Of a stretch of 64,000 nt of DNA, positions 1 through 64,000 are shown in pieces. The stretch lies in the NCBI RefSeq assembly GCF_056746865.1, contig NZ_CM163382.1. One strand, 5' to 3'. The notes under the pieces were generated by a model. That model was given only the letters and a program-made list of their open reading frames with translations, did not search any database and was not told the origin of the DNA. Positions within the stretch are counted from its first letter, which is position 1, and each line of letters begins with the position of its first letter. The translations under genes were made by a program, and so were the position numbers.

Positions 1-31
1 GCCCTGAAAGGCATGGTCATTCCGCATTGCA
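1..31 (-). other. Fragment homologous to an internal region of the beta-propeller paralogs; possible truncated fourth copy continuing left of the window
   Basis: 18-nt exact match (gaaaggcatggtcattcc, positions 7-24) to paralog B at about 3118-3135; minus-strand translation gives GMTMPF, a motif shared with paralogs B and C; the adjacent 32-119 is AT-rich non-coding. Confidence 0.3.
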
Positions 32-767
32 TTTTTAAAGTTTTTTATCCATTATTTATTCTGATTAATAATCAAAATTGAAATCCTGTCTTTGAAATGT
101 AATGGCAGTGCAACAATCACTATTCAGAACAGAAATCACCTTTCTCTGCCTGAACACAATTAATCAATATATCCCAGTGACCGTTCTCTAAGCGAGCTAC
201 ACCATAATACCCAGCCAGAACCAGGGTTTTTTCTGTACAACTGATATAACCAGTGCACATTTTTACCTCGCTGGGTAAATCTGGCTGAACAACATCATCC
301 CCGATTATTTGCCACACACCATAATCAGACGTTGCCCAGACACAATTTTCATACCATACCATTTGCCTGAACGGTAAGGTTAACTCCCCCCGATGAATCA
401 TCTTCCATTGATCTTTTCGACCTTTAAATACAGTACCGCTTTGCGCACCGATATAAACATAGCCATCCTGACCACAACAGATAGATTCAATGAGCATGTT
501 GCTGGGAAAATGAATTTGCCTCCATTCATCACCATCGAAATTCCAGACATCTCCTTTACCGCCTGCGGCATAGATATCATTTTCAGAGAAGCCATCCACA
601 CAACTAAAACCAGCAGCATCCAGGAATAGCATCTGTTCACGGATTGTTTTAATTTCATCTTGCGCAGGGAGATGGATACCTTTATTTAGTTTCTCCCAAT
701 TATTTCTATCTATCCTGCGAACAACACTACGTGCGGATCCTACAACATACAATCGATGGATTTGCCC

Positions 768-1673
768 CTATATTTCCAGACACCTGTTATCACTTAACCC
801 ATTACTGGCCCGCTGCCGTAGATATTCCCGTGGCGAGCGATAACCCAGTGCACTATGCGGATGCCATTCGTTATAATGCTCGAACGCCTCTGCAAGGTTC
901 TTTGCTGCCGTTAACCCGTCTGGTTTAGGCATGATACTGATGTAGTCACGCTTTATCGTTTTCACGAAGCTCTCTGCTATGCCGTTACTCTCCGGACTCC
1001 GCACCGCCGTGTTCTTCGGTTCAAGCCCCAACATCCGGGCAAACTGCCGTGTTTCATTAGCCCGGTAGCATGAACCATTATCCGTCAGCCACTCTACTGG
1101 AGACGCCGGAAGCTCGTTGCCGAAGCGGCGTTCCACCGCTCCCAGCATTACGTCCTGTACTGTTTCACTGTCGAAGCCGCCCGTAGTGACTGCCCAGTGC
1201 AGTGCCTCACGGTCACAGCAGTCCAGCGCGAACGTGACTCGCAGTTTTTCTCCGTTATCACAGCGGAACTCGAACCCGTCAGAGCACCATCGTTGATTGC
1301 TTTCTTTCACGGCCACTTTGCCAGTATGTGCCCGTTTCGATGGCGGTACAGCGGTTTTTCGCTCAAGCAACAGCGCATTCTGGCGCATGATCCGGTAAAC
1401 ACGTTTGGCATTGATCGCAGGCATACCATCAAGTTCGGCCTGTCTGCGAAGCAGCGCCCATACCCGACGATAACCATACGTGGGCAGCTCTCCGATAACA
1501 TGGTGTATACGGAGAAGCACATCCGTATCATCTGAGTGACGGCTGCGGCGACCATCTTTCCAGTCATCGGTTCGTCTGAGAATGACGTGCAACTGCGCAC
1601 GCGACACCCGGAGACAACGGCTGACTAAGCTTACTCCCCATCCCCGGGCAATAAGGGCGCGTGCGCTATCCAC
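768..1673 (-). CDS. insD: IS2 transposase OrfB (InsD)
   Basis: 301-aa ORF recognised as IS2 InsD (ends ...[31 protein letters not shown]); integrase catalytic core. Confidence 0.9.
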
Positions 1674-1996
1674 TTTTTTGCACGCCCGTATTCAACGGCT
1701 TCTTTAAGGAGTTCATTTTCCATCGTTTTTTTGCCGAGCAGGCGCTGGAGTTCTTTAATCTGCTTCATGGCAGCAGCAAGTTCAGAGGCAGGAACGACCT
1801 GCTCTCCTGCGGCCACAGCAGTAAGACTTCCCTCCTGGTATTGCTTGCGCCAGAGAAATAACTGGCTGGCTGCCACACCGTGTTGCCGGGCAACAAGGGA
1901 GACCGTCATTCCCGGTTCAAAACTCTGCTGAACAATAGCGATCTTTTCCTGTGTAGTACGCCGTCTGCGTTTCTCCGGTCCTAAGACATCAATCAT
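1631..1996 (-). CDS. insC: IS2 OrfA (InsC), helix-turn-helix protein
   Basis: ORF contains [56 protein letters not shown]; start placed at the internal Met matching the 121-aa InsC; overlaps insD as expected for a frameshift-fused transposase. Confidence 0.85.
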
Positions 1997-2497
1997 CTGC
2001 TCTCCAATGACTAGTCTAAAAACTAGTATTAAGACTATCACTTATTTAAGTGATATTGGTTGTCTGGAGATTCAGGGGGCCAGTCTAATCGACCACCAAT
2101 AGTCCGGGTATTGCTAATGGCAAATTCATATGGGATCGGTTCTTCAAGCCCTTCAAAACCACTACCTATAGCAAAAACCTCATTTTCCATTGTAACGCCC
2201 ACGTACTGACTGAATGGAATACTGGTTGTAGCCGAAAATATCTTGTCCATTCCTTCATAACCGCTGTATCCCCATTGCTCTCCTAATGGTTCATCAAAAA
2301 AAAAGGAAACAAAATTTTTTCTTGCCAGATGTTCTTCCATTACAGGGTCTATATCATCTCGCTTTTCTCGTGTAGTTATATAAATATAACCAGTGTCTCT
2401 TACTGCAACACCATTAATATAAAACCCTTTGAATATTTCATTGTACTCATCTTGAGTAATAATCATGTTTTTAATCTCATATTATTTTCATTTGTTT

Positions 2498-2812
2498 TTA
2501 CTGGAGTAAGAGTATGGACGGGATTGTTTTCCACCCATGCCCTTTCTGGAATCCCGGTGTCGCCGGAACATTCCCTTCACTGGTAGAGAAATACGAGCGA
2601 TCTTTCTGTGCCACCATCGACTTACAGATAAATACGGTAGCTGTTCCGTTCTGCAAATCCCGGGCATACGCCGTGTTGGAATAAGGCACAACGACCGGGC
2701 CTGTGGGCGGAGGAGGAGGGGACCAGCAGGGATCGGGAAATGCGCCAGCAGATTTCCCGTCAGACGCTCTGGAGCAGGCTTCCCGCCCGTTGATATAAAC
2801 GTTAGTTTCCAT
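2498..2812 (-). CDS. Hypothetical small ORF (104 aa, proline-rich) between paralog B and paralog A
   Basis: ORF ends 31 bp upstream of the paralog A start; its first codons (METNVY) lie in the conserved repeat downstream of B and C; the remainder is a GC-rich segment absent from the C-to-B spacer; coding status uncertain. Confidence 0.25.
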   Translation of the reverse strand: METNVYINGREACSRASDGKSAGAFPDPCWSPPPPPTGPVVVPYSNTAYARDLQNGTATVFICKSMVAQKDRSYFSTSEGNVPATPGFQKGHGWKTIPSILLLQ

Positions 2813-3365
2813 AATGTGCTATCCGTGTACCCACTTTCCTTTAAATTAACTGCTGGCCCGGGAGGCTATTCAAACGCCATTGAATCAAAGAGGACATTCC
2901 AGGCATTACCATCATAAATAGCAGCTCCTCTGGAGCCACAAACCATCATCACTGTCCCATCGGGGGAAACATCAATTCTTTTACTTAAAACGGCCACTTC
3001 AGGAGGGACGGGTTTATGTTTTGCATGCATGGCGAGCACCAGTTTGTCATCTTCCAGTACCCAGATGCCATAATCACTGGCACACCAGAGACGTCCATCA
3101 AACCATCCCATGTCGAGGAAAGGCATGGTCATTCCACCATGCGTAATTTGTGTCCATTGCTCATTGCGACCCTTCCATATAGCACCGTCAAAATCAGCAA
3201 TATAAACAAATCCGTCACCGGCACAGCAAACTGTGTACAGAAGTTTATTTGTCGGAAAAGGGAGTTTTTTCCATTGCTCACCATTAAAGTGATAAACGGT
3301 TCCCGTTCCACCCACTGCATACATATCTGACTCGGAAAAACCAGATAAATCCTGAAATAAGCTTC
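2796..3365. repeat. Direct repeat copy 1, about 570 bp: 3' half of paralog B plus about 70 bp of its 3' flank
   Basis: Near-identical to 3943..4512 (a handful of mismatches); repeat spacing 1147 bp. Confidence 0.85.
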
Positions 3366-3906
3366 TGGACATCGACTCAGCCTTCCGTTCCAGGAATCCA
3401 TCGGGAACAGGAATAGTTTGTGAAGCATCCAGCCAAACCTGATGATTAATTCGTTTATATATTCTTAACCCTCCCCCAATTGCATAGACACTTGTTCCTA
3501 CTCTGACTACCTTAATTATAGCTGTTCTCATGTCTGAGGATTTAGAAATAGGAATATCCAGATTATTTTCTCGTCCCTTGTATTCTCTGGTTTTGTAGCT
3601 TATGACTTCACAGTCGATATCAACTATAACTAATTCAGTTTGGGAAGGTGACCATCCAGCCGATATCGTTGGATAGCTCAAATTACCGAAAGACATCCCA
3701 AACACCCTGTTTTCAGGAGGGTTGTCAATAACTATTGATACCAGCTTGTGTTTAGGCATGTAATAGTCGTTGCCATATTCGATATGATTTTCATCAATTT
3801 TTTCAATTAATAATAAGCCAACGCGGCCATGTTCAAAGCCATATGTACAATCATATACTTCAAAATTTTTAAAGGTTTTATCCCAACGTTCTTGACTAAT
3901 AATCAT
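2866..3906 (-). CDS. Hypothetical protein, paralog B (346 aa) with beta-propeller-like repeats resembling BNR/Ycf48 or Kelch blades
   Basis: Intact 346-aa ORF; the C-terminal ~155-160 aa (from DLSGFSESDMYAVGG) are identical to paralog C, the N-terminal half about 60 percent identical; repeated blade-like motifs (YAIGGG...W, YAVGGTGTVYHFNGEQW, FDGAIWKGRNEQW, YDGNAW). Confidence 0.75.
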   Translation of the reverse strand: MIISQERWDKTFKNFEVYDCTYGFEHGRVGLLLIEKIDENHIEYGNDYYMPKHKLVSIVIDNPPENRVFGMSFGNLSYPTISAGWSPSQTELVIVDIDCEVISYKTREYKGRENNLDIPISKSSDMRTAIIKVVRVGTSVYAIGGGLRIYKRINHQVWLDASQTIPVPDGFLERKAESMSRSLFQDLSGFSESDMYAVGGTGTVYHFNGEQWKKLPFPTNKLLYTVCCAGDGFVYIADFDGAIWKGRNEQWTQITHGGMTMPFLDMGWFDGRLWCASDYGIWVLEDDKLVLAMHAKHKPVPPEVAVLSKRIDVSPDGTVMMVCGSRGAAIYDGNAWNVLFDSMAFE

Positions 3907-3942
3907 TTCATTTCCTTAGTTATCACAATTATCATCATAGCT

Positions 3943-4512
3943 ATCTATAAACGTTAGTTTCCATAATATGCTATCCGTGTGCCCACTTTCCTTTAAATTA
4001 ACTGCTGGCCCGGGAGGCTATTCAAACGCCATTGAATCAAAGAGGACATTCCAGGCATTACCATCATAAATAGCAGCTCCTCTGGAACCACAAACCATCA
4101 TCACGGTCCCATCGGGTGAAACATCAATTCTTTTACTTAAAACGGCCACTTCAGGAGGGACGGGTTTATGTTTTGCATGCATGGCAAGCACCAGTTTGTC
4201 ATCTTCCAGCACCCAGATGCCATAATCACTGGCACACCAGAGACGTCCATCAAACCATCCCATGTCGAGGAATGGCATGGTCATTCCACCATGCGTAATT
4301 TGTGTCCATTGTTCATTGCGACCCTTCCATATAGCACCGTCAAAATCAGCAATATAAACAAATCCGTCACCGGCACAGCAAACTGTGTACAGAAGTTTAT
4401 TTGTCGGAAAAGGGAGTTGTTTCCATTGCTCACCATTAAAGTGATAAACCGTTCCCGTTCCGCCCACTGCATACATATCCGATTCGGAAAAACCAGATAA
4501 ATCTCGGAATCG
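3943..4512. repeat. Direct repeat copy 2, about 570 bp: 3' half of paralog C plus its 3' flank
   Basis: Near-identical to 2796..3365. Confidence 0.85.
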
Positions 4513-5058
4513 ACTTCTGGTTATTGCTTCTACCTTCCTATCTAACAATCCATCGGGGACAGGCAGGTATGTAGAATGTTCCCGCCAAATTTGGTGATCA
4601 ACACGTTTGTATATTCTGAAACCACTACCGATAGCGTAAACACTGTTTTCAATTCGTACTACTTTTATTATAACGGAAAACATATCGATAGAACCTGGTA
4701 TGAGTATATTTATACTTTCTTCTACTCCTTTGTATACATCTTCTTTATAACTCATAACATCACGGTCCTGACTGACCATAACATATTCGGTCTGAGATGG
4801 GGGCCAACCAGAAGATATAGTCATCAGAGATATCCCTGTTGCGCGACGACCATATATGCGATATTTTTTGGAGAGGGTAAACGTAATGGAAATTAATCTC
4901 TTTTCAGGTGGGTAAAAAGGGTTTTCATATTCGGCATGCTCCTCATCTACCACTTCAATCAATGAAAGACCTACTTTTCCATGCTCGTAACCATAGGTGC
5001 AGTCATATATATAAAAGCCTTTGAGATATTTCTGATACGATTCTATATCTATGATCAT
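4018..5058 (-). CDS. Hypothetical protein, paralog C (346 aa) with beta-propeller-like repeats
   Basis: Intact 346-aa ORF; C-terminal half identical to paralog B, N-terminal half diverged; low GC. Confidence 0.75.
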   Translation of the reverse strand: MIIDIESYQKYLKGFYIYDCTYGYEHGKVGLSLIEVVDEEHAEYENPFYPPEKRLISITFTLSKKYRIYGRRATGISLMTISSGWPPSQTEYVMVSQDRDVMSYKEDVYKGVEESINILIPGSIDMFSVIIKVVRIENSVYAIGSGFRIYKRVDHQIWREHSTYLPVPDGLLDRKVEAITRSRFRDLSGFSESDMYAVGGTGTVYHFNGEQWKQLPFPTNKLLYTVCCAGDGFVYIADFDGAIWKGRNEQWTQITHGGMTMPFLDMGWFDGRLWCASDYGIWVLEDDKLVLAMHAKHKPVPPEVAVLSKRIDVSPDGTVMMVCGSRGAAIYDGNAWNVLFDSMAFE

Positions 5059-5083
5059 TTATCACCTCAAATATCTTCATCGT

Positions 5084-5383
5084 TTATAACACCCCCATCA
5101 CCTGCATTGATTTTTGCAGAGTTAAATCACCACAGGTATAAGCGTCTTGGTAAGCTTTATCCAGTTGCGCTTTCAAACAAGATTTATCACAACCGTACAT
5201 TAATGCAACCTCATCAATTACCATACATCTGGCATCTTTATAACTCATTTCTTTTCCAAAATGCTTTTCTTCTATTAGAGTGCCTGTAGCTGAGTGTAAT
5301 GCACCATGTGAACCAGTACGATTGTCTTTTCCTTCCAGACAAATTGTAGGCGCTTTGCCTTCGGTATATTCCCCCCCCAGCAC
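5084..5383 (-). CDS. Hypothetical small protein (99 aa), tightly coupled upstream of paralog C
   Basis: ORF ends 26 bp before the paralog C start; GTG start codon inferred; a run of 8 G on the coding strand sits at codons 3-5; no recognisable homology. Confidence 0.35.
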   Translation of the reverse strand: MLGGEYTEGKAPTICLEGKDNRTGSHGALHSATGTLIEEKHFGKEMSYKDARCMVIDEVALMYGCDKSCLKAQLDKAYQDAYTCGDLTLQKSMQVMGVL

Positions 5384-5751
5384 TTTCTTGTTGGATATTT
5401 GCTACGGGGCATTCTTTATATTAATTTTTCTTCCTTATGGAGTATCTCTGTTTGACACTTTAAAGTCTCTATGAGAATTATAAGATTTTTTTTAAAATAA
5501 TACGTTTTCAGATTTAGCAACAGGATTTTCACTCATACGATTAATATACGATATTTTAATCTCAAAAATATATTTGGCTGGTGAAGCTATCTGGGGTGTA
5601 TATTCACACCACATATATTATCAAAAGGCAGTTACGCTACCGCCATACCCTGATAAAACTCACCATCTGCACGAAACGGATTTTACGCTTTTTCTTCCGG
5701 CGAAATATCAAATTCTCAATTCAAATAATATCTATTGCGTTATATGACCTA

Positions 5752-7200
5752 TCACTCCCTCTCCGGCAGCACAATCACAAACCTTGTTCCTCGCGCATCT
5801 GACGTTACCGCAACTGTGCCTTTATGCGCGACAACAATCGATTTCACTATCGCCAGCCCAATGCCGCTACCTTCGCCTTTTCGCTGGCGGGAAGGATCAA
5901 CGCGGTAGAAACGGTCAAACAATCGCGGTAAGTGTTCGGGCGCAATGGGCGTACCGGGGTTTTCGACGGTAACTTGCACCTGATGATCGACCGCCTGGCA
6001 GCGTACTACAATAGCCTCTCCGGGTGGCGTATAACGCAGGGCATTAGAAAGCAGGTTGTTTAACGCCCGACGCAGCATCAGCGGATCGCCCGCAACCTGA
6101 CACTCGTCACCAACAAACCGCAACTCCACGCCGCGATCTTCCGCTAACGCCTCGAAAAAATCGAACACTTTGCCGACTTCATCCGCCAGGTTGAGCATTT
6201 TCTTTTCGGGGATTAACTGGTTGTTATCGGCCTGGGCGAGAAACAACATATCGCTGACCATTTTCGCCATTCGCGTCAGCTCTTCGAGATTAGAGTAGAG
6301 CACATCTTCCAGCTCCTTCTGGCTGCGTGACTGGCTGAGGGCGATTTCGGTTTGCGTTATGAGATTCGTAATTGGTGTACGAATTTCGTGAGCGATATCC
6401 GCTGAGAAATTGGACTGGCGAGTAAAGACATCCTCAATACGCTCGATCATATGGTTGAACGACAGTACCAGCTGTTCCAGCTCAATCGGCACGGTCTGCG
6501 GGTCAAGGCGAACGTCGAGATCTTTCGAGGTGATATTCTGGATTTGACGGCTGACGCTGCGGATCGGCGCGTGACCTTTATGTACCGCCAATAGCACGAT
6601 AAAGACGATCAGGATGCTGATGATCGATGCGGTCATAATAAGTTTATTCATCAAATCATTTATGTAATGAAGATGAAAATCGATCGAAAGCGCGATGTAG
6701 AGCGTATAAATCGGTTTGCCGTCCACCAACGGGCCAACCGGCAAGTTAATCATCCGCCAGTTGCTGTGTTCCATATGCCCGTGACCGTGGCCCGGCATCA
6801 TCATTGTCGGGCCGGAAAGGAGATACACCTCGCCGCCCCGCGCGTCTTTATCGGGTATGGCATCACGTGCAAACTCGCGGATATCGGGCGCACCGGGGGA
6901 GTGATATACCGTTTTACCGTGGCTATCTGCCAGGGAGATCAACACATTGGAATAACCACTGACAATATCTTCCAGCGTCATTAAGCGTCGGGCTTGCGTT
7001 TCGTCAGGGTGATTAAGTACCCGTTCAAGTGTGGCGCTAATTTCTTTTAAATCATTAATATCCTGCTCGGCAAAATGCACTTTTACCGAGTGGATCATTA
7101 TCCATGCAAAGGCGAAAAACGCCGCGATGGTGGCGAGGCTGATAAAAAAGGTCAGGCGGGTTGCCAGCGAAAACGGGCGCTGAAATGGCTTACTGACCAT
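5752..7200 (-). CDS. cusS: Copper/silver-sensing histidine kinase CusS
   Basis: Translation matches CusS ([16 protein letters not shown]...; periplasmic sensor, HAMP, HisKA and ATPase regions); start set at the internal Met of the 486-aa ORF. Confidence 0.92.
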
Positions 7201-7873
7201 CCGGCACCTCAAGCATGTAACCCACGCCGCGCACGGTTTGAATCAGCTTCGGCTCAAAGTCGTTGTCGATTTTGCCACGCAGCCGCTTCACCGCCACATC
7301 AATGGCGTTAGTGTCGCTGTCGAAATTCATGTCCCACACCTGCGAGGCGATAAGCGAGCGGGGCAGCACTTCGCCCTGATGGCGAAGGAAAAACTCCAGC
7401 AGAGTAAACTCTTTACTGGTCAGAGTGATGCGCGTACCGCTGCGGGTGACTTTGCGGCTGACGAGATCGACCATCAAATCGGCAACCTGAAACTGACTTT
7501 CGATAATCACCGCCGCCCCGCGCCGCAGTAATGTGCGCACCCGCGCCAGCAGTTCAGCAAAAGCGAATGGCTTCACCAGGTAGTCATCTGCCCCCAACTC
7601 CAGCCCCTTGACGCGATGTTCAATGGTGCCAAGCGCGGTAAGCAACAGAATCGGCATCCCTTTATTGGCGGAACGCAACATACGCACGATATCCCAGCCG
7701 TTCACGTCTGGCAGCATAATATCGAGGATTATCAGGTCATAATCACCGGTCATCGCCAGATGGTAGCCATTCAGCCCGTTGTCGGCCAAATCGACCACAA
7801 AACCGGCTTCGGTTAACCCTTTGGTCAAGTATTCTCCGGTTTTCTTTTCATCTTCGACAATCAACAGTTTCAT
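7190..7873 (-). CDS. cusR: Copper-responsive response regulator CusR (OmpR family)
   Basis: 227-aa [23 protein letters not shown]...; receiver plus winged-helix domains; overlaps the cusS start by 11 bp. Confidence 0.95.
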
Positions 7874-7938
7874 ATTTCCTCCGCATGTTGCCCGGGCAAT
7901 TCTAGAGTAGCGGGATCAGATGGCAATCGCTTATTGGC

Positions 7939-7960
7939 AAAATGACAATTTTGTCATTTT
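7939..7960. promoter_or_regulatory. CusR box palindrome in the cusR-cusC divergent promoter region
   Basis: Perfect inverted repeat aaaatgacaa-tt-ttgtcatttt between divergent cusR and cusC. Confidence 0.7.
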
Positions 7961-8029
7961 CCTGTCACCGGAAAATCAGAGCCTGGCGGGTAAAGTTGGC
8001 GACATAAAATCACCAGAAATTATGTGCCT

Positions 8030-9412
8030 ATGTCTCCTTGTAAACTTCTGCCATTTTGTGTGGCCCTTGCGCTAACCGGTTGTTCACTGGCACCGGATTA
8101 TCAGCGCCCGGCAATGCCCGTGCCGCAGCAGTTCTCACTCAACCAGAACGGCCTGGTTAACGCAGCAGATAACTACCAGAACGCGGGCTGGCGCACCTTT
8201 TTTGTTGATAATCAGGTGAAGACGCTGATTAGCGAGGCGCTGGTGAATAACCGGGATTTGCGCATGGCGACGCTGAAAGTGCAGGAAGCGCGGGCGCAAT
8301 ATCGTCTGACCGATGCCGACCGCTACCCACAGCTCAATGGCGAGGGCAGCGGCAGCTGGAGCGGCAATCTTAAAGGCGATTCAGCCACGACGCGGGAGTT
8401 CTCGACTGGCCTTAACGCCAGCTTTGATCTCGATTTTTTCGGTCGCTTAAAGAACATGAGCGAAGCCGAGCGACAAAATTATTTAGCCACTGAGGAAGCC
8501 CAGCGCGCGGTGCATATTCTGCTGGTTTCTAATGTCGCGCAAAGCTATTTCAATCAGCAGCTGGCGTATGCGCAATTGCAAATCGCCGAAGAAACGCTGC
8601 GTAATTATCAGCAGTCATATGCGTTTGTCGAAAAACAACTGTTGACCGGTAGCAGCAATGTTCTGGCGCTGGAACAGGCTCGCGGGGTGATTGAAAGTAC
8701 CCGCAGCGACATCGCTAAACGTCAGGGGGAACTGGCGCAGGCGAATAATGCATTGCAACTGTTATTGGGAAGCTACGGCAAGCTGCCGCAAGCGCAGACA
8801 GTAAACAGCCACAGCCTGCAAAGCGTTAAATTACCGGCGGGCTTGTCGTCGCAAATTTTATTGCAGCGCCCGGATATTATGGAAGCTGAACACGCGTTAA
8901 TGGCGGCTAATGCCAATATTGGTGCTGCACGTGCAGCATTTTTCCCGTCTATCAGCCTGACCAGCGGAATATCGACCACCAGCAGCGATCTGTCGTCATT
9001 ATTTAACGCCAGCAGCGGGATGTGGAATTTTATTCCCAAAATTGAGATCCCCATTTTTAATGCCGGACGCAACCAGGCCAATCTGGATATCGCCGAAATT
9101 CGCCAGCAGCAGTCGGTGGTGAATTATGAACAGAAAATCCAGAACGCCTTTAAAGAAGTGGCAGATGCGCTGGCATTACGTCAAAGCCTGAACGATCAAA
9201 TTAGCGCCCAGCAGCGTTATCTGGCGTCGCTGCAAATTACTTTGCAACGGGCGCGGGCATTATATCAGCACGGCGCGGTAAGTTATCTGGAAGTGCTGGA
9301 TGCTGAGCGTTCTTTATTTGCAACCCGACAAACTTTACTTGACCTGAATTATGCCCGTCAGGTTAATGAAATTTCTTTATATACCGCCTTAGGCGGCGGT
9401 TGGCAGCAATAA
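8030..9412 (+). CDS. cusC: Outer-membrane efflux lipoprotein CusC
   Basis: Translation MSPCKLLPFCVALALTGCSLAPDYQRP... with a lipobox; TolC-like channel. Confidence 0.93.
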   Translation: MSPCKLLPFCVALALTGCSLAPDYQRPAMPVPQQFSLNQNGLVNAADNYQNAGWRTFFVDNQVKTLISEALVNNRDLRMATLKVQEARAQYRLTDADRYPQLNGEGSGSWSGNLKGDSATTREFSTGLNASFDLDFFGRLKNMSEAERQNYLATEEAQRAVHILLVSNVAQSYFNQQLAYAQLQIAEETLRNYQQSYAFVEKQLLTGSSNVLALEQARGVIESTRSDIAKRQGELAQANNALQLLLGSYGKLPQAQTVNSHSLQSVKLPAGLSSQILLQRPDIMEAEHALMAANANIGAARAAFFPSISLTSGISTTSSDLSSLFNASSGMWNFIPKIEIPIFNAGRNQANLDIAEIRQQQSVVNYEQKIQNAFKEVADALALRQSLNDQISAQQRYLASLQITLQRARALYQHGAVSYLEVLDAERSLFATRQTLLDLNYARQVNEISLYTALGGGWQQ

Positions 9413-9435
9413 TTTTTAACTCCAGGAGAGAATAA

Positions 9436-9768
9436 ATGAAAAAAGCACTGCAAGTCGCAATGTTCAGTCTGTTTACCGTTATTGGCTTTAATGCCCAGGC
9501 TAACGAACATCATCATGAAACCATGAGCGAGGCACAACCACAGGTCATTAGCGCCACCGGTGTGGTAAAAACCATTGATCTGGAAAGCAAAAAAATCACC
9601 ATCCACCACGATCCAATTACCGCGGTGAACTGGCCGGAGATGACCATGCGCTTTACCATCACCCCGCAGACGAAAATGAGTGAAATTAAAACCGGCGACA
9701 AAGTGGCGTTTAATTTTGTCCAGCAGGGCAACCTTTCTTTATTACAGGATATTAAAGTCAGCCAGTAA
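9436..9768 (+). CDS. cusF: Periplasmic copper chaperone CusF
   Basis: 110-aa ORF MKKALQVAMFSLFTVIGFNAQANEHHHETMSEAQPQ... Confidence 0.95.
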   Translation: MKKALQVAMFSLFTVIGFNAQANEHHHETMSEAQPQVISATGVVKTIDLESKKITIHHDPITAVNWPEMTMRFTITPQTKMSEIKTGDKVAFNFVQQGNLSLLQDIKVSQ

Positions 9769-9783
9769 CCCAGGTTTAATGAG

Positions 9784-11007
9784 ATGAAAAAAATCGCGCT
9801 TATTATCGGCAGCATGATCGCGGGCGGTATTATTTCTGCGGCAGGTTTTACCTGGTTTGCAAAGGCGGAACCGCCCGCAGAAAAAACGTCGACCGCAGAA
9901 CGTAAAATTTTATTCTGGTACGACCCGATGTATCCCAATACGCGGTTCGATAAACCAGGTAAATCGCCGTTTATGGATATGGATCTGGTGCCGAAATATG
10001 CCGATGAAGAGAGTTCTGCGTCTGGTGTGCGCATTGACCCGACTCAGACGCAGAATCTGGGGGTGAAAACGGCTACCGTCACGCGCGGGCCGCTGACTTT
10101 TGCCCAGAGTTTCCCGGCGAATGTCAGTTACAACGAGTATCAGTATGCCATTGTGCAGGCTCGCGCTGCCGGGTTTATCGACAAGGTGTATCCGCTTACC
10201 GTGGGCGATAAAGTGCAAAAGGGCACACCGCTTCTCGACCTGACCATTCCCGACTGGGTGGAAGCGCAGAGTGAGTATTTACTGCTGCGCGAAACCGGCG
10301 GTACGGCGACCCAGACTGAAGGCATTCTTGAGCGGCTGCGACTGGCGGGAATGCCGGAGGCGGATATTCGCCGCCTGATCGCCACGCAAAAAATCCAGAC
10401 TCGCTTTACGCTCAAAGCGCCCATTGATGGCGTGATCACCGCGTTTGATCTGCGCGCGGGAATGAATATCGCCAAAGATAATGTGGTAGCGAAAATTCAG
10501 GGTATGGACCCGGTGTGGATCACTGCCGCGATCCCGGAGTCCATCGCCTGGCTGGTGAAAGATGCCTCGCAGTTTACGCTCACCGTTCCGGCGCGACCTG
10601 ATAAAACACTCACCATTCGCAAATGGACCCTGCTACCCGGCGTGGATGCCGCGACCCGCACGCTGCAGCTGCGTCTGGAAGTCGACAACGCCGACGAGGC
10701 GCTAAAACCGGGAATGAACGCCTGGTTGCAACTCAACACCGCCAGCGAACCGATGCTGCTCATTCCGTCACAGGCGCTGATTGATACCGGCAACGAACAG
10801 CGGGTGATTACCGTTGATGCCGACGGACGCTTTGTACCGAAACGCGTTGCCGTTTTCCAGGCATCGCAAGGCGTCACCGCGTTACGCTCTGGTCTGGCGG
10901 AAGGTGAAAAGGTGGTTTCCAGCGGCCTGTTCCTGATTGATTCCGAAGCCAATATTTCTGGCGCACTGGAGCGGATGCGCTCTGAAAGTGCTACCCATGC
11001 GCATTGA
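9784..11007 (+). CDS. cusB: Membrane fusion protein CusB
   Basis: 407-aa ORF matches CusB. Confidence 0.95.
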   Translation: MKKIALIIGSMIAGGIISAAGFTWFAKAEPPAEKTSTAERKILFWYDPMYPNTRFDKPGKSPFMDMDLVPKYADEESSASGVRIDPTQTQNLGVKTATVTRGPLTFAQSFPANVSYNEYQYAIVQARAAGFIDKVYPLTVGDKVQKGTPLLDLTIPDWVEAQSEYLLLRETGGTATQTEGILERLRLAGMPEADIRRLIATQKIQTRFTLKAPIDGVITAFDLRAGMNIAKDNVVAKIQGMDPVWITAAIPESIAWLVKDASQFTLTVPARPDKTLTIRKWTLLPGVDAATRTLQLRLEVDNADEALKPGMNAWLQLNTASEPMLLIPSQALIDTGNEQRVITVDADGRFVPKRVAVFQASQGVTALRSGLAEGEKVVSSGLFLIDSEANISGALERMRSESATHAH

Positions 11008-47955: not shown

Positions 47956-49148
47956 TCCTGACGTTTTCCTTTTATTCGTTCGTTATAACGCTGATAGTTC
48001 TTCGCTTTGGTCGGGCTAAATGATAATGCCCGACACCAGTAATCGTTATTGAGTAAAACTTTGCATATTCGCCGCCAGGAGGGGATATCTTTCGCGCCAA
48101 TGTCCCCTTGCTGGGTTTGTGGAACCTCGATGCCTTTTTTCTGATACCAGTGCAAATAAATGGCGATTTTATTGCGATAATGCTCAGCTGTTTTCTCCGG
48201 CATGCTGTTGAGTAGCAATAATGCATACTCCTGCCAGTCTAAATGTTCGGGCTTGAGGATTTTCCGATGACCATAAAAATGGTTGTCATGTCCGGCGTAA
48301 ATGCCGCCACTTTTTACCCCGCTGACTCGTGCGCACATAGCAGCCCAGCGATCCGGTTCGATAACGTGATAGAGCCATAATCCTTGCCGTTGTTCCGGAC
48401 CAAAAGGTTCGCAAATTCGCATATGACGTAGAGGAACGCCTGCCTGATACATTATATTATACAGTGGGTTACAGAGGCGTTGATGGCTAGCATACCAGGT
48501 CCAGATATCAGCGACTTTCCAGTCGTAGATGGGGTAAATGTACCAGCTATGACCGCCTGGTGCGGCAGTAGTCCAGGGCTTATCATCGGCAAAACGTTGT
48601 TTATTTAAACTGGCGATGGCGACAAAACGGTTGTAGGACTCATCCGCACGGATGCCGATCATCATCGCCGCCGGACGTTTTTGCGAAAACCATTCGGCAA
48701 ACTCACGCACAAATTGTTCGAAGGTCATGCCAGGCTGGTAAAAGGAGAAAAAGTCAGGATCGGTTATCGCATCTTGCGGGGGCTGACGTACCCATTCGAC
48801 ATCAGGTTCCCAGCACTGCCATTCGGGTTGGTATTGTGATAGGGAATTTTGCGTTGTAAGCGGGAGCGCAATCCAGTAAAACTCTTCGATGACATCGGTG
48901 TACAACTCGCGCAGAGACTGAACATAGTTAATGGTGCAAGAGAACTGAGCTTCCCAGTCGATAAATAAAACACAAATTTTTTTGCCCATTTGTCGGGCAA
49001 GTTCGGCGGTCAGATGCAGCATTAATCCGGAATCTTTACCACCCGAAAAAGAAACGCAGACGCGGGGTAGGGTGTTAAGTGTCCAGGTAATACGTTCTTT
49101 TGCAGCTTCCAGAATATTCAGTGGAAGCGGGATTTTATAAATAGACAT
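47928..49148 (-). CDS. ybdN: YbdN, PAPS reductase-like (adenine nucleotide alpha hydrolase) domain protein
   Basis: 406-aa ORF MSIYKIPLPLNILEAAKERITWTLNTLPRVCVSFSGGKDSGLMLHLTAELARQMGKKICVLFIDWEAQF... with the PP-loop motif SFSGGKDS; 3' end overlaps the ybdM start by 28 bp. Confidence 0.9.
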   Translation of the reverse strand: MSIYKIPLPLNILEAAKERITWTLNTLPRVCVSFSGGKDSGLMLHLTAELARQMGKKICVLFIDWEAQFSCTINYVQSLRELYTDVIEEFYWIALPLTTQNSLSQYQPEWQCWEPDVEWVRQPPQDAITDPDFFSFYQPGMTFEQFVREFAEWFSQKRPAAMMIGIRADESYNRFVAIASLNKQRFADDKPWTTAAPGGHSWYIYPIYDWKVADIWTWYASHQRLCNPLYNIMYQAGVPLRHMRICEPFGPEQRQGLWLYHVIEPDRWAAMCARVSGVKSGGIYAGHDNHFYGHRKILKPEHLDWQEYALLLLNSMPEKTAEHYRNKIAIYLHWYQKKGIEVPQTQQGDIGAKDIPSWRRICKVLLNNDYWCRALSFSPTKAKNYQRYNERIKGKRQEWGILCNND

Positions 49149-49294
49149 CTGAAAACGCTCTCTGAACGTTACGGGGTGACTCGTGAGATGAATCCGTTAA
49201 TTATAGGGTAAACGAAGCAAGATAGAGCACATTATTTTATATTCACACAATGAATTAATTGATGCGTAATATAACATTTATCCGTGGTAATAAA

Positions 49295-50197
49295 TCAGAA
49301 GCTATCATTTAAACGATCTATGAATCGTGAGAAGACAAGGTTGTTCAACGAAGCCTTGTTATAGGAAATATAAAGTTTAACCGCAGGAAGTGGTCGTTCC
49401 AGTTTTATCTCTTGTAACTTCAAAAAATCACGATGTAAATCGTACAGTTCGGTGGGCACAATGCCCAATAAGTCAGTAACAGAAATACTATTAATTATCG
49501 TCAACAAAGAAGAACTGCGAAATGAAACTTTACGGTTCATAAAACGTTCATCTATGTCCATTTGAATTTCGTCAATCCCTGCTGATTTAGATATCAACAA
49601 GGTGAATTCTTCGGCGATAATTTGTTCATAGTTACTGGTATCGGTAATACGAGGATGTTTGTTGCTACATATAAGAGAATTGCGAATAGTATGTAACGGC
49701 ATGCAGATGACAGAGCGGCTAATTACTGGTTGTAGTGTAATTGCCAGGTCAGTTTTGCGTTGAACCAACAGTTCTTCGGCATTTTCAGCTGAAAGCAGTA
49801 TGTCATGGCATTCTATATCGATTGAAGTATCTTGTCTAAGACAGCGGATTAGCATGTTGTTATTAGTACAAGAAATAAGCTGAGGACCGTAGATAATAAA
49901 ATTTTTCTTTAGCTCAGACTTATTAACAATATTGATCGTTTGTTCAATGCCTCTGAGATTTTTCTCAAGATGATGATGCAGATTTAACCCTGTCGTAGTC
50001 GGCGCGATACCTTTCCCTGAGCGAATGAATAACGGGTCATTAAATTGCGCACGTAAACGTTGTAACGACTGACTAACAGCAGAGGGCGTTATATATAATG
50101 ATTCTGCCGCTTTACTAATGCTGAGATGTTGATAAATACACTCAAATATGACCAGTAAATTCAGATCAAATTTTTTTAGGTCATAAAGATTCGCCAT
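49295..50197 (-). CDS. ybdO: LysR-family transcriptional regulator YbdO
   Basis: Translation MANLYDLKKFDLNLLVIFECIYQHLSISKAAESLYITPSAVSQSLQRLRAQFNDPLFIRSGKGIAPTTTG... (HTH plus LysR substrate-binding domain); AT-rich gene. Confidence 0.9.
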   Translation of the reverse strand: MANLYDLKKFDLNLLVIFECIYQHLSISKAAESLYITPSAVSQSLQRLRAQFNDPLFIRSGKGIAPTTTGLNLHHHLEKNLRGIEQTINIVNKSELKKNFIIYGPQLISCTNNNMLIRCLRQDTSIDIECHDILLSAENAEELLVQRKTDLAITLQPVISRSVICMPLHTIRNSLICSNKHPRITDTSNYEQIIAEEFTLLISKSAGIDEIQMDIDERFMNRKVSFRSSSLLTIINSISVTDLLGIVPTELYDLHRDFLKLQEIKLERPLPAVKLYISYNKASLNNLVFSRFIDRLNDSF

Positions 50198-50404
50198 AAC
50201 ATACTCCGTTATATTATCTCTTCTATAAATCATTCATTTGTTCAATAATGTTGCTGTTGTATTTATTTGTATTATGTTTTTTTGCTTAACTCAGAATTAA
50301 GTTTTTCTAAAATAGCACAGCCACTTAGGGCAGAGCGAGCAATTCATGCTTTTTTAGGATGGTTGAAAAATAGGGATATATTTCAACCATCCATGAATTA
50401 TCTT

Positions 50405-51151
50405 TTATTTATTCCCCATAATGATATTAAGCGTTTTCTGATCGGGCAACCCCACGGCCTGTTGCAGTGTATTTTCCTTACTCATGTAGTAGATAGCTGG
50501 TGTGACATTTGCCCCCAGATCGTCCATCAGTTTCTCGTTGTCGCTTAACACTTTCATTTGCTCTGTACTTACGTTTGCAGGCACGTTTAGCTTAAGCTTG
50601 CCACCAGAGGCTTCATATTCTTGCCAGGTTTTTGCGGGATCTTTGGAGGCAAGAATTGCCGCTGCTGTCGCCGGGCTTTCTGGCTTGATAACGCCAACCA
50701 ACAATGTTCTTAATTGCACTTTGCCAGAATCAACCCACGGGCGAGCCTGCTGCCAGAACTGTTTACAATATGGGCAGAACGGATCGGCGAAGACGTAGAC
50801 AATGACCGGCGCGTCTTTTTTACCGTCGAGGAGCCAGTGGGATTGTTCCATCCGTTGCCACATTTCGCGCCCGGCTGGTGCGTAAATTTCTTTTTCGATA
50901 AGTGTGTTACTCAGGTTTTCACCTTTCTCGTTGTACATGTAACCGGAGATAGCGTGCTTACCATCTGGAGTCAGGTAGATGGTGACGCCCATATCCTGAT
51001 ACTTGCCGAGATAACCTTTCATTCCTCCGGGAGCATCGAACGTTTTGATGATTGTAATGCCCTGTTTTTCAATCGCTTTTACTGGATCAGGAAGTTCCTC
51101 TGCGAAGGCGATTGCAGGAAGCAGAGCCAGTAAAAGTATCTTTTTTAACAT
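50405..51151 (-). CDS. dsbG: Periplasmic thiol:disulfide interchange protein DsbG
   Basis: Translation [75 protein letters not shown]... with the CPYC active site. Confidence 0.95.
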
Positions 51152-61966: not shown

Positions 61967-63025
61967 TCATGCGGGGGTCTTTTGACGAGCTGCCGCGTCC
62001 TGGCGGGAGTGCTCAAGCAGGTTCTGCAAATAATGCAGCGTGACTGCAGGGACCAGCGGCGCGATAGCCGTGAGATCGTTTTTCGCCAGCAGTTGACGTA
62101 CCCGGGAAGCGGATATCGGCATCTCCTGGTAACGCAGCCGCTCAATTTCAACCAGTTCGATGGGCGGTGCGGAGATAGTCGGCGTTTCCAGCCAGTAGCG
62201 CATATCCTGGTTGTACTGGGCGGTAACGCGACAAAAGGGTTCAGTACCGACAAAGCGGTGAGTTACACCCAGCGCGGGAGCGAGGTACTGACGGAAAATC
62301 TTCAGATCAATTTCGGTGTAACAATGGTTAATGACGCTCTGTTCTTTAATGAAGTAGCAAGGGAACGTAGCGCGGGAGATGATGTATTCGGAGCCGCGAT
62401 GCACAGTCAGGCGTGGAATATCGGCGGTGCCTTTTAACACCAGATCCAGCCGGTCTTCATAGGGAAAGCGTGAAGAATCTTCTTTAACTAAAAACAGATG
62501 CAACCAGTCGCACTGTGCTGCAGCCTGTTGAATCAGATAACGGTGACCATTCGTAAAGGGATTGGCGTTCATCACAATGCAGCCAATCTTGTTCCCTGGA
62601 TGACGAAATTTTTTCAGCGATTCGGCATAGCGTTTCAGTCGCGTGGCGCTGTTTTCCATCAGCACCATCACGCCGGGTACACTGGTCAGCGTGGAAAAAC
62701 CGCACTGGCGGAACAGCGCCTCGTATTCGGTTTTGGTATAAATAAACAGATGCGTGCTGTGCCGCTCATAGGCGAGGTTAATTAGCTCGGTGGCTAATGT
62801 CAGCGCCAGTCCTTCACCGCGAACGGATTCACTGATAGCAACGCATTTAATAATATTTCCGGCAATTCCACCGCACGCGATAAGCTTTTCATCGCGGGTT
62901 ACGGTAATAAATACTTCGACTGTGGTGTCAACGCTCAAATCATTTTCATGCAGGAATTGGGCGATTTCCGCCATTTTTTTATTTTCTGAACGTTTTACAC
63001 GGGTGCAAATATCATTGCCGAACAT
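61967..63025 (-). CDS. citC: [Citrate (pro-3S)-lyase] ligase CitC
   Basis: Translation from the internal Met, MFGNDICTRVKRSENKKMAEIAQFLHENDLSVDTTVEVFITVTRDEKLIACGGIAGNIIKCVAISESVRGEGLALTLATEL... Confidence 0.92.
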   Translation of the reverse strand: MFGNDICTRVKRSENKKMAEIAQFLHENDLSVDTTVEVFITVTRDEKLIACGGIAGNIIKCVAISESVRGEGLALTLATELINLAYERHSTHLFIYTKTEYEALFRQCGFSTLTSVPGVMVLMENSATRLKRYAESLKKFRHPGNKIGCIVMNANPFTNGHRYLIQQAAAQCDWLHLFLVKEDSSRFPYEDRLDLVLKGTADIPRLTVHRGSEYIISRATFPCYFIKEQSVINHCYTEIDLKIFRQYLAPALGVTHRFVGTEPFCRVTAQYNQDMRYWLETPTISAPPIELVEIERLRYQEMPISASRVRQLLAKNDLTAIAPLVPAVTLHYLQNLLEHSRQDAAARQKTPA

Positions 63026-63404
63026 AATAAATAGTATCCTGAAGGTGCATGTTGTTATCGATTTGCAACGAATGTTGTTCGATGTTGCAAACTGATAACC
63101 TTTTATTTTCACTTGGGAGAAAGGGGGGCGATCGAGGTATATCTTTTTCTCCTTTCGCTATACATCCTAAGGAGTATTGCAGCGTGAAATTTTGATTTAT
63201 TTCACATAGAGTTAGTGGTTTTTTATTTATTTAATGGTTTTAAGTTTTTTAATTAATGTAATTACGAAATGACCCGCAGGTTTAAGTGATTTAATTGATT
63301 TAATGAATAAAATTTGCCACGATTATATTTAATATCTATGTATTTTGATTCAACATTTTAATTACATCCGTCAAAGAGGCTCGGGACAACCCGCAAGGAA
63401 AACA

Positions 63405-64000
63405 ATGTTGCAGCTTAACGAGAATAAACAGTTTGCATTTTTCCAAAGACTGGCATTTCCGCTGCGTATCTTTTTGCTGATTCTGGTGTTCTCAATATTT
63501 GTCATTGCAGCCCTGGCGCAATATTTTACGGCCAGTTTTGAGGACTATTTAACGCTTCATGTGCGCGACATGGCAATGAATCAGGCAAAAATTATTGCTT
63601 CTAATGACAGTATCATCAGCGCAGTGAAAACGCGTGACTACAAGAGGCTGGCGACCATCGCTGACAAATTACAAAGAGATACTGATTTCGATTATGTGGT
63701 GATTGGCGATCGGCACTCGATTCGTCTTTACCATCCTAATCCGGAGAAAATTGGTTATCCTATGCAGTTCACCAAACCGGGCGCGCTGGAGAAAGGGGAG
63801 AGCTACTTCATCACCGGGAAAGGGTCAATTGGCATGGCGATGCGTGCCAAAACGCCAATCTTTGATGACGATGGAAAAGTCATCGGCGTGGTGTCGATTG
63901 GCTACCTGGTGAGTAAAATCGATAGCTGGCGTGCTGAGTTTTTATTACCGATGGCAGGTGTGTTTGTCGTGCTGTTAGGGATTCTGATGTTGCTATCGTG
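63405..64000 (+). CDS. citA: Sensor histidine kinase CitA (DpiB), 5' part; truncated by the window end
   Basis: ATG at 63405 gives MLQLNENKQFAFFQRLAFPLRIFLLILVFSIFVIAALAQYFTASFEDYLTLHVRDMAMNQAKIIASNDSIISAVKTRDYKRLATIADKLQRDTDFDYVVIGDRHSIRLYHPNPEKIGYPMQFTKPGALEKGESYFITGKGSIGMAMRAKTPIFDDDGKVIGVVSIGYLVSKIDSWRAEF...; divergent from citC. Confidence 0.9.
   Translation, partial: MLQLNENKQFAFFQRLAFPLRIFLLILVFSIFVIAALAQYFTASFEDYLTLHVRDMAMNQAKIIASNDSIISAVKTRDYKRLATIADKLQRDTDFDYVVIGDRHSIRLYHPNPEKIGYPMQFTKPGALEKGESYFITGKGSIGMAMRAKTPIFDDDGKVIGVVSIGYLVSKIDSWRAEFLLPMAGVFVVLLGILMLLS

Follow-up and report, generated by a model that had tools for sequence, protein, structure and literature searches.

What adjoins the copper sensor gene cusS when it is not nfrB, its neighbour in Escherichia coli K-12? 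This question is raised by a 64,000-nucleotide stretch of DNA from contig NZ_CM163382.1 of NCBI RefSeq assembly GCF_056746865.1 (hereafter the window), whose first 5,751 positions lie downstream of cusS and hold a row of related genes. An earlier note, made from the letters of this stretch, described these positions as an AT-rich island carrying a paralog array in the place of nfrB and nfrA. We consider it likely that an accessory island of roughly 10.8 kb lies here, of which positions 1–5751 are the half next to cusS, and that these positions hold the ruins of type VI secretion system (T6SS) effector and immunity genes of the Tse7/Tsi7 kind, once arranged in tandem, the survivors of which would serve as orphan immunity genes. 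The paralog array does comprise three immunity-type paralogs, but the T6SS toxin remnants among them and the putative immunity identity of the paralogs had gone unrecognised. Loci of this kind are already known as polymorphic-toxin or T6SS auxiliary islands with orphan immunity genes. What had been a vague AT-rich island of paralogs is now a defined object, and it belongs to ordinary accessory-genome biology.

Anatomy of the array beside cusS

All genes and gene remnants of the array lie on the minus strand and read away from cusS. Read from the sequence, three tandem toxin–immunity modules once stood here; every toxin was inactivated by deletion, every immunity-type open reading frame (ORF) survived, and genes for delivery are absent. 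The array records three rounds of toxin loss in which the immunity gene was kept.

At 5067–5419, the module nearest cusS begins with what remains of a gene for a PAAR-like/Tox-GHH2 nuclease toxin, its final ~100 codons (Pfam Tox-GHH2, E = 8.8e-8, model positions 31–120 of 122). This remnant corresponds to residues 404–503 of a 529-residue Salmonella toxin at 64% identity. In the Salmonella protein the GHH motif is found at residue 369, and therefore the remnant retains neither this motif nor any of the first ~400 residues. Two frameshifts disrupt what is left: MPRSKYPTRKCWG, which lies upstream, is thrown out of frame by a poly-G/C tract of eight nucleotides (5371–5378), and the loss of one base pair from a T-run (5124–5126) leaves the true tail, FNSAKINAGDGGVINDEDI and its stop codon, in another frame. 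The ORF annotated by RefSeq inside this remnant encodes 99 residues (5084–5383). The homopolymer is a run of C as presented here and of G on the coding strand; database fragments imply runs of 6, 7 and 8 G (P0003, P0001 and P0002, respectively), so the length of the tract varies between strains or assemblies.

Next comes ImmA (4018–5058), an intact immunity-type gene for a 346-residue beta-propeller that is 68% identical to a Salmonella protein of 346 residues. Its stop codon is separated by a 53-bp spacer (3965–4017) from the start codon of a gutted toxin gene (3907–3964), in which the first 19 nt, ATGGAAACTAACGTTTATA (3964–3946), are joined to a 39-bp tail. The tail, which reads DSYDDNCDN and a stop in another frame and contains the ribosome-binding site of ImmB, is acidic and rich in D and N and is similar to the C-termini of toxins in relatives. 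ImmB (2866–3906), also intact, encodes a second 346-residue beta-propeller of the immunity type with 70% identity to the Salmonella 346-residue protein. Good ribosome-binding sites precede both ImmA and ImmB.

The second copy of the 53-bp spacer, again running from immunity stop codon to toxin start codon (2813–2865), is nearly identical to the first. It leads into a PAAR-like (DUF4150/PIPY) effector stub at 2498–2812 (Pfam Tox-PAAR-like, E = 1.5e-11, model positions 4–63 of 108), whose start at 2812 is identical to the start of the gutted toxin gene at 3964. Specifically, after codons 1–91 (2812–2540) the stub runs on through 13 unrelated codons to a stop. It is 88–89% identical to residues 1–91 of the 538- and 529-residue Salmonella toxins, and the homology stops at residue 91.

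The third immunity-type paralog, ImmC, is interrupted by the insertion sequence (IS) IS2. Its 5′ part, with the start codon at 2466, covers 2088–2466, and its 3′ part covers 120–756. The IS2 copy between them (757–2087, minus strand, 1,331 bp) aligns end to end and gaplessly with IS2A of K-12 at ~96% identity and is flanked by a 5-bp target duplication, ATCGA, at 752–756 and 2088–2092. In the carrier strain 118UI (locus L001), ImmC is uninterrupted and encodes 336 residues (L001 12120–13130). A single contiguous match spanning the IS2 insertion was found in none of 5,426 complete E. coli genomes, the set used for every census described here, and the sole match covering at least 80% of the IS2-bearing query contains another IS, located in ImmA. 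Positions 1–119 are a spacer downstream of ImmC that equals the 118UI sequence, in which the island continues leftward.

Just left of the window, a 92-residue ‘hypothetical protein’ of 118UI proves to be the 3′ remnant of a thiolase-like T6SS accessory gene: L001 11716–11994 is 85.5% identical to residues 268–336 of a 347-residue thiolase-like protein of Salmonella. Neither vgrG nor DUF2169 was found in the island or elsewhere in the 118UI genome, nor was a second copy of the DUF2169, thiolase-like or toxin DNA found elsewhere in that genome.

The two CDSs that RefSeq names ‘HNH/endonuclease VII fold toxin-2’ and ‘PAAR-like’ are, on this reading of their coding frames, pseudogene fragments. 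The annotation of the 99- and 104-residue products as coding sequences with domain names could also be taken at face value, as marking an active T6SS effector–immunity locus with two functional proteins. We regard that explanation as extremely improbable, and the sequence contradicts it. Neither the GHH motif nor a trafficking domain is encoded by the 99-residue ORF, whose C-terminus is frameshifted; the 104-residue ORF covers 60 of 108 PAAR-like model positions and carries no toxin domain; and the island contains no vgrG or DUF2169. Compared with a Tse7-like effector, the PAAR-like domain is incomplete, the GHH2 domain is without its motif and no ORF joins the two. Indeed, 2.3 kb of DNA containing two immunity genes separates the PAAR-like fragment from the GHH2 fragment.

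Intact relatives and the beta-propeller family

A protein search with the GHH2 fragment returned short proteins only, from E. coli, Salmonella and Citrobacter. Among these, a 123-residue Tox-GHH2 call from Salmonella enterica had been considered as a conserved free-standing orphan ORF. This candidate was refuted by six-frame reading, which places the call at the end of an uninterrupted PAAR-like/GHH2 ORF of 529 residues (8783–10372 of loci L007/L008), and therefore Salmonella possesses two intact tandem toxin–immunity modules. The gene order in L008 is VgrG, DUF6484, DUF2169, the 347-residue thiolase-like protein, a 538-residue PAAR-like/GHH2 toxin, a 342-residue protein, the 529-residue toxin and the 346-residue protein. 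Short gene calls in a protein collection can hide intact long genes, as this Salmonella case illustrates.

An intact cluster of the Salmonella type is also present in E. coli ET350 (locus L011, near yafV, ivy and fadE), where two toxins are each followed by a member of the same family, of 327 or 348 residues. A blastn search for clusters of this type matched very few E. coli genomes apart from the island carriers. ImmC is 35% identical to the 342-residue Salmonella protein directly 3′ of the 538-residue toxin, and 35–36% identical to two ET350 family members of 342–348 residues, one of which lies directly 3′ of a PAAR-like/GHH2 toxin. The ET350 region as a whole, a T6SS auxiliary region that is rare in E. 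coli, holds three VgrG modules, of which one is an intact VgrG–DUF6484–DUF2169–thiolase-like cluster with two PAAR-like/GHH2 toxin–immunity pairs, and also an ISAs1 copy. Translated comparison (tblastx) gives ~97% identity between a ~110-bp segment of ET350 and DNA that adjoins the thiolase-like remnant in the 118UI island.

These arrangements recall characterized systems. In Tse7 of Pseudomonas aeruginosa, DUF4150 (residues 1–135) precedes a Tox-GHH2 domain that has a GHH motif; its immunity protein Tsi7 is encoded downstream (PMC9846239). A ‘synteny type A’ cluster comprises VgrG, DUF6484, DUF2169 and a thiolase-like gene with a DUF4150 effector, and the P. aeruginosa example delivers Tse7 (PMC11883445). 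As in the vgrG1b cluster of P. aeruginosa (PA0095–PA0101), the immunity-type gene directly follows the toxin, and a thiolase-like remnant adjoins the array; in contrast to that cluster, the array has no intact toxin and no delivery genes. Tse7 proteins measure 315–386 residues, whereas the toxins of the enterobacterial relatives measure ~530–540, and Tsi7 (PA0100) is likened to the ~340-residue propellers by gene position downstream of the toxin only. A further comparison is offered by TseV/TsiV of Salmonella bongori SPI-22 (PMC9635880), in which a PAAR-like N-terminal domain is likewise fused to a nuclease toxin, downstream immunity genes are likewise duplicated and vgrG/DUF2169 auxiliary loci likewise occur in Enterobacteriaceae. 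However, that system pairs a VRR-Nuc toxin with DUF3396 immunity, rather than Tox-GHH2 with a beta-propeller.

Orphan T6SS immunity genes have been reported in Vibrio cholerae and noted in E. coli (PMC6730261). The V. cholerae orphan arrays (Kirchberger et al. 2017) resemble the present one in that immunity-type ORFs are kept with no functional cognate effector beside them, in that their homologs belong to intact pairs of other strains or genera and in that protection against neighbours is proposed. Specifically, homologs of the genes described here lie directly 3′ of effectors elsewhere, and no intact cognate effector stands beside the array. Two differences are apparent: this array lies outside a T6SS cluster, at a hotspot beside a copper sensor gene, and its toxins were lost to deletions, with 5′ stubs left behind, and not visibly displaced by incoming effectors. 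The array, the nfrB–cusS hotspot and the propeller family were all absent from the literature searched.

The fold of the immunity-type proteins was examined with ImmA. An AlphaFold2 model built on an alignment of 49 sequences is all-beta, with a predicted local distance difference test (pLDDT) score of 94.2 and a predicted template modelling (pTM) score of 0.92, and on this model we assign ImmA with confidence as a predicted beta-propeller. Foldseek searches with the model retrieve generic seven-bladed WD40/G-beta propellers at template modelling (TM) scores of ~0.55–0.6 and ~10% identity. By sequence, ImmA has no Pfam match above threshold, no NCBIfam or PADLOC match and, in a search of the PDB, nothing below E = 0.1. 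A hydrophobic N-terminal segment is absent from the immunity-type proteins, which is consistent with neutralization of a DNase in the cytoplasm.

A homolog search yielded 85 proteins from Enterobacteriaceae, Betaproteobacteria (Massilia, Chitiniphilus, Ralstonia, Paraburkholderia and Azoarcus) and Pseudomonas; no P. aeruginosa protein is named among these matches. The Pseudomonas family member has a 489-residue Tox-GHH2 protein 12 bp upstream. Family members in Paraburkholderia form a tandem pair without a toxin, and the Massilia member is a lone copy beside a transposase.

From these comparisons we infer that the propellers are immunity proteins that are expressed and protective, and the following model can be proposed. 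Each module would have comprised a toxin that carries a PAAR-like (DUF4150/PIPY) spike-tip domain at its N-terminus and a Tox-GHH2 DNase of the HNH type at its C-terminus, followed by a gene for a cytoplasmic beta-propeller immunity protein of ~340 residues. Deletion reduced the three toxins to ~100 end codons with two frameshifts, to 19 nt with a tail and to codons 1–91, and the three immunity-type genes were kept as full ORFs, with ImmC split by IS2 only later, in this strain. The vgrG, DUF6484 and DUF2169 delivery genes have been lost, and of the thiolase-like gene a 92-residue scrap is left just outside the window. The surviving propellers would then bind and neutralize GHH2 nucleases delivered into the cell by rival bacteria, for example Salmonella, Citrobacter or rare E. 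coli strains, and the locus would provide orphan immunity, or defence without offence.

Retention or decay of the immunity-type genes

ImmA and ImmB form a mosaic pair: their first 540 nt are ~58% identical, and from nt 631 to the end identity reaches 97–100%, a level that is kept past the stop codon, across the 53-bp spacer and over the 19 nt with which the toxin gene begins. Across codons 181–346 the two genes show 15 synonymous and 3 nonsynonymous differences, corresponding to a ratio of nonsynonymous to synonymous substitution rates (dN/dS) of 0.05; the ratio relative to the Salmonella homolog is 0.13. By this measure the immunity ORFs appear to be under purifying selection.

Several points weigh against a retained immunity function. 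The low dN/dS was mostly shaped before the toxins were lost. IS elements have struck the array independently in several strains, with IS2 in ImmC in the window, an IS3-family element in ImmA (SCU-105), IS5 (GN05505) and IS1 in the spacer (FDAARGOS_1291), and such independent insertions fit relaxed selection as well as chance. A scan for sigma-70-like promoters on the minus strand of the gap between cusS and the array returned none, and a terminator-like hairpin follows cusS; expression of the array is therefore putative. The propeller family has no relative in Pfam, NCBIfam or the PDB, and the putative assignment as immunity proteins is drawn from adjacency in five toxin–propeller pairs.

Accordingly, the main rival explanation holds that the entire island, immunity-type genes included, is a neutral, decaying remnant that hitchhikes in one E. 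coli lineage and brings it no benefit. This is an explanation to be taken seriously, although we judge it unlikely. It is favoured by the death of all three toxins, by the independent IS insertions in ImmC, ImmA and the spacer of different strains by the failure to find a promoter-like site on the coding strand of the gap and by the terminator-like hairpin after cusS. Furthermore, all 152 carriers of the array are at least 99% identical and are the sole sharers of one cusS 3′ allele, and therefore a single young clade is suggested, in which there was little time for selection. However, deletions took each toxin and spared each immunity ORF three times over. ImmA and ImmB are intact both in 118UI and in the window and are annotated across the carrier records shown, and the excess of synonymous changes in their 3′ halves (15 versus 3) also speaks against simple decay, as do the orphan family copies in Paraburkholderia (a tandem pair) and Massilia.

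The mosaic structure invites another interpretation, by analogy with the cassette swapping proposed for orphan modules of Rhs and contact-dependent inhibition (CDI) systems. The array might act as a cassette reservoir, from which recombination at the joints (immunity 3′ half, 53-bp spacer and toxin 5′ start) would swap cassettes of toxin C-terminus and immunity N-terminus into a full-length effector gene. The high identity of ImmA and ImmB through the joint would suit such a role, as would the 88–89% conservation of toxin N-terminal regions across genera. In contrast, neither a full-length recipient gene nor a DUF2169 cluster is present in carrier genomes (118UI was checked), and the GHH2 remnant, with its two frameshifts, has no upstream region for in-frame recombination. 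A reservoir role is weak because the carriers have no recipient gene, and we hold it to be improbable.

Retained orphan immunity by Tse7/Tsi7-type genes stays the explanation that we prefer. We tentatively extend it, with more doubt than conviction, to the proposal that the propellers represent a possible class of their own among immunity proteins, new and directed at Tox-GHH2 DNases. In such a class the variable N-terminal half would set toxin specificity, whereas the joint for cassette exchange would be made up of the conserved C-terminal half, the 53-bp spacer and the conserved toxin 5′ end. Arrays would then protect a lineage that has no cognate delivery genes against attackers from other genera (Salmonella and Citrobacter) and from rare E. 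coli. If the propellers do neutralize GHH2 nucleases, they would constitute an unannotated immunity family of relevance to competition of E. coli with Salmonella and Citrobacter in the gut.

The nfrB–cusS junction and the composition of the island

In K-12 MG1655, nfrB and cusS are adjacent with a 149-bp spacer, as the earlier note stated. Its statement that the array occupies the position of nfrB and nfrA holds in that the array adjoins cusS, but it misleads, since the island is inserted between an intact nfrB and cusS and nfrBA has not been replaced. The nfrB side was inspected in two near-identical carriers, 118UI and SCU-105, which share the same layout. In both, nfrB is intact ~6.5 kb to the left of the first base of the window, with nfrA and ybcH next, also intact, in 118UI. 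The island of 118UI spans ~10.8 kb (L001 5671–16437) between nfrB and cusS. The non-IS sequence of the window is 100% identical to that of 118UI, with positions 1–756 equal to L001 12001–12756, and the window therefore begins inside the island, at L001 12001, from where the island continues ~6.3 kb to nfrB in both carriers. An island bounded by positions 1 and 5751, as first drawn, is accordingly too short on its left side.

The left half of the 118UI island (L001 5671–12000) carries two ISEc1 (H-rpt) elements, a SUKH-3 immunity-type gene, two hypothetical genes of ~145 residues and a 66-residue ORF with a weak BrxL-ATPase-like match. The two ~145-residue genes are also found in an island variant with an SMI1/KNR4 gene.

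The array is contiguous with cusS in 152 of the 5,426 genomes (2.8%), where a carrier was counted if the array–cusS joint query was covered to at least 80%; all such matches are at least 99% identical. One small ‘plasmid’ match, H68 (GN06156), was excluded as a low-quality linear contig with frameshifted cus genes. A query for the K-12 junction is contiguous in 2,328 genomes (43%); of the others that were sampled along the ranked matches, most interrupt the query at one and the same base. The contiguous, K-12-like junction of nfrB and cusS is thus missing from over half of the complete E. coli genomes, and the examples inspected hold cargo for interbacterial warfare or a lone IS. For example, O157:H7 (L003) carries vgrG, a DcrB-like gene, an Rhs gene, an immunity gene, an orphan metallopeptidase toxin and ISAs1 at this site; 2017-02-2CC (L005) carries the SMI1/KNR4 gene and two small genes; and SLK172 carries IS1 alone. 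Immunity-type genes of the SMI1/KNR4 or SUKH-3 kind occur at the same junctions in other variants. The O157-type and window-type islands share an identical left junction sequence and the same right junction at the cusS stop codon. Because junctions are common and cargo differs across variants, the nfrB–cusS junction is a long-standing hotspot at which cargo is exchanged.

The O157:H7 island also resembles that of the carriers in having ISAs1/ISEc1 (H-rpt) near the nfrB side and T6SS-related cargo. Its cargo is nevertheless wholly different, with an intact VgrG and an Rhs effector of 1,616 residues, whereas no ORF of the window has an Rhs or VgrG domain and the only DNA of the window that matches the O157 Rhs island is cusS. 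A count of O157-type islands by a vgrG–cusS junction query is confounded by vgrG paralogs elsewhere; the estimate of ~1,900–2,250 records, taken from an evenly spaced ranking, is rough. A literature search for cusS or nfrB together with vgrG or Rhs found nothing relevant.

Base composition sets the island apart from its surroundings. Without IS2 (positions 1–756 and 2088–5751, 4,420 bp), the content of guanine and cytosine (GC) is 40.7%, compared with 52.4% for window positions 5752–64000; IS2 itself has 52.9% and cusS 51.9%. The first 5.7 kb is thus AT-rich apart from IS2, as had been noted. Sliding GC values run from 0.35 to 0.46 over 1–750 and 2000–5750 and return to 0.52–0.59 in the cus genes. 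Over the remainder of the window, GC in steps of 500 bp averages 0.524 with a standard deviation of 0.052, and just 10% of these 500-bp windows fall below 0.46. GC at third codon positions (GC3) is 0.27–0.36 for island ORFs versus 0.56–0.67 for cusS, cusR and cusC. The sole GC-normal piece of the island is the PAAR-like stub (54%).

Deviant in composition and strain-variable at a conserved site, the locus bears out the earlier view of horizontal acquisition, to which the IS elements and the other cargo at the same junctions also testify; composition is far from uniform and the array is far from general among E. coli, the two outcomes that would have told against that view. On the explanation preferred here, the low GC, the strain variability and the IS elements would follow from horizontal exchange of polymorphic-toxin DNA at a hotspot of recombination. 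Inspection of the island junctions showed no direct repeats; the window ORFs include no integrase and there is no tRNA, so that IS elements (IS2 here and ISEc1 further left in 118UI) are the only mobile features.

An island of low GC that carries IS elements and occupies a variable site could in principle have a function unrelated to T6SS, such as anti-phage defence, or be a prophage remnant, and beta-propeller proteins are found in many kinds of system. Such a function is nevertheless barely plausible here, since PADLOC is negative for all five products, phage genes, integrase, tRNA and Rfam elements are lacking and every recognizable piece maps to a T6SS auxiliary cluster.

Between the array and cusS lies a gap (5384–5751) that measures 368 bp at 32.1% GC, close to the 370-bp AT-rich gap first reported. 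Its left 36 bp (5384–5419) are toxin-derived pseudogene sequence; the remainder (5420–5751, GC 27–35%) is an AT-rich spacer at the right end of the island. A 233-bp segment of this spacer (5519–5751) matches the L005 island variant at 90% and is missing from the O157-type island. A terminator-like hairpin, GGCGGTAGCGTAACTGCC followed by TTTTGATAAT, occupies 5644–5627 on the minus strand, 108 bp past the cusS stop codon; it lies inside the segment common to two island variants and does not occur in K-12.

The palindrome GGTGTATATTCACACC, reported at 5593–5608, does exist, but at 5595–5610, with a 5-bp stem and a 6-nt loop, and such structures arise at chance frequency. Specifically, the gap contains four hairpins of this kind versus 3.5 ± 2.2 in shuffled sequences. 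With 8-bp arms and at most one mismatch, six are observed versus 1.6 expected, a count reached by 3% of shuffles. As a regulatory or attachment (att) site the palindrome was dropped, given the chance frequency of hairpins and a T-tail on neither strand. Searches of positions 1–8000 returned no Rfam match at E ≤ 1 and no tRNA.

The right flank of the island, and outside it, is cusS (5752–7212, minus strand), whose product has a C-terminus unlike that of K-12: VIVLPERE here versus VITLPA in K-12, each followed by the stop. Rightward homology resumes at 5774 relative to K-12 and at 5751 relative to O157. The O157-type site matches the window through the cusS stop codon, and its CusS is judged to end in PERE. 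Within the 3′ end of cusS (5752–6029), the last ~256 bp are only 91.8% identical to K-12, compared with ~96.5% for the rest of cusS–cusC. At a threshold of at least 99% identity, the cusS 3′ allele is found only in the 152 island carriers.

Further dips of low GC (0.34–0.40) occur at window positions 49000–50500 and 62750–63500. They lie over or near ORFs for a PAPS-reductase/DUF3440 protein, a LysR-family protein and a citrate lyase ligase, with a DsbC/DsbG-like thiol-disulfide isomerase just past them. By the gene order of K-12 these are presumably ybdN, ybdO, citC and dsbG, which we take to be core genes and not islands.

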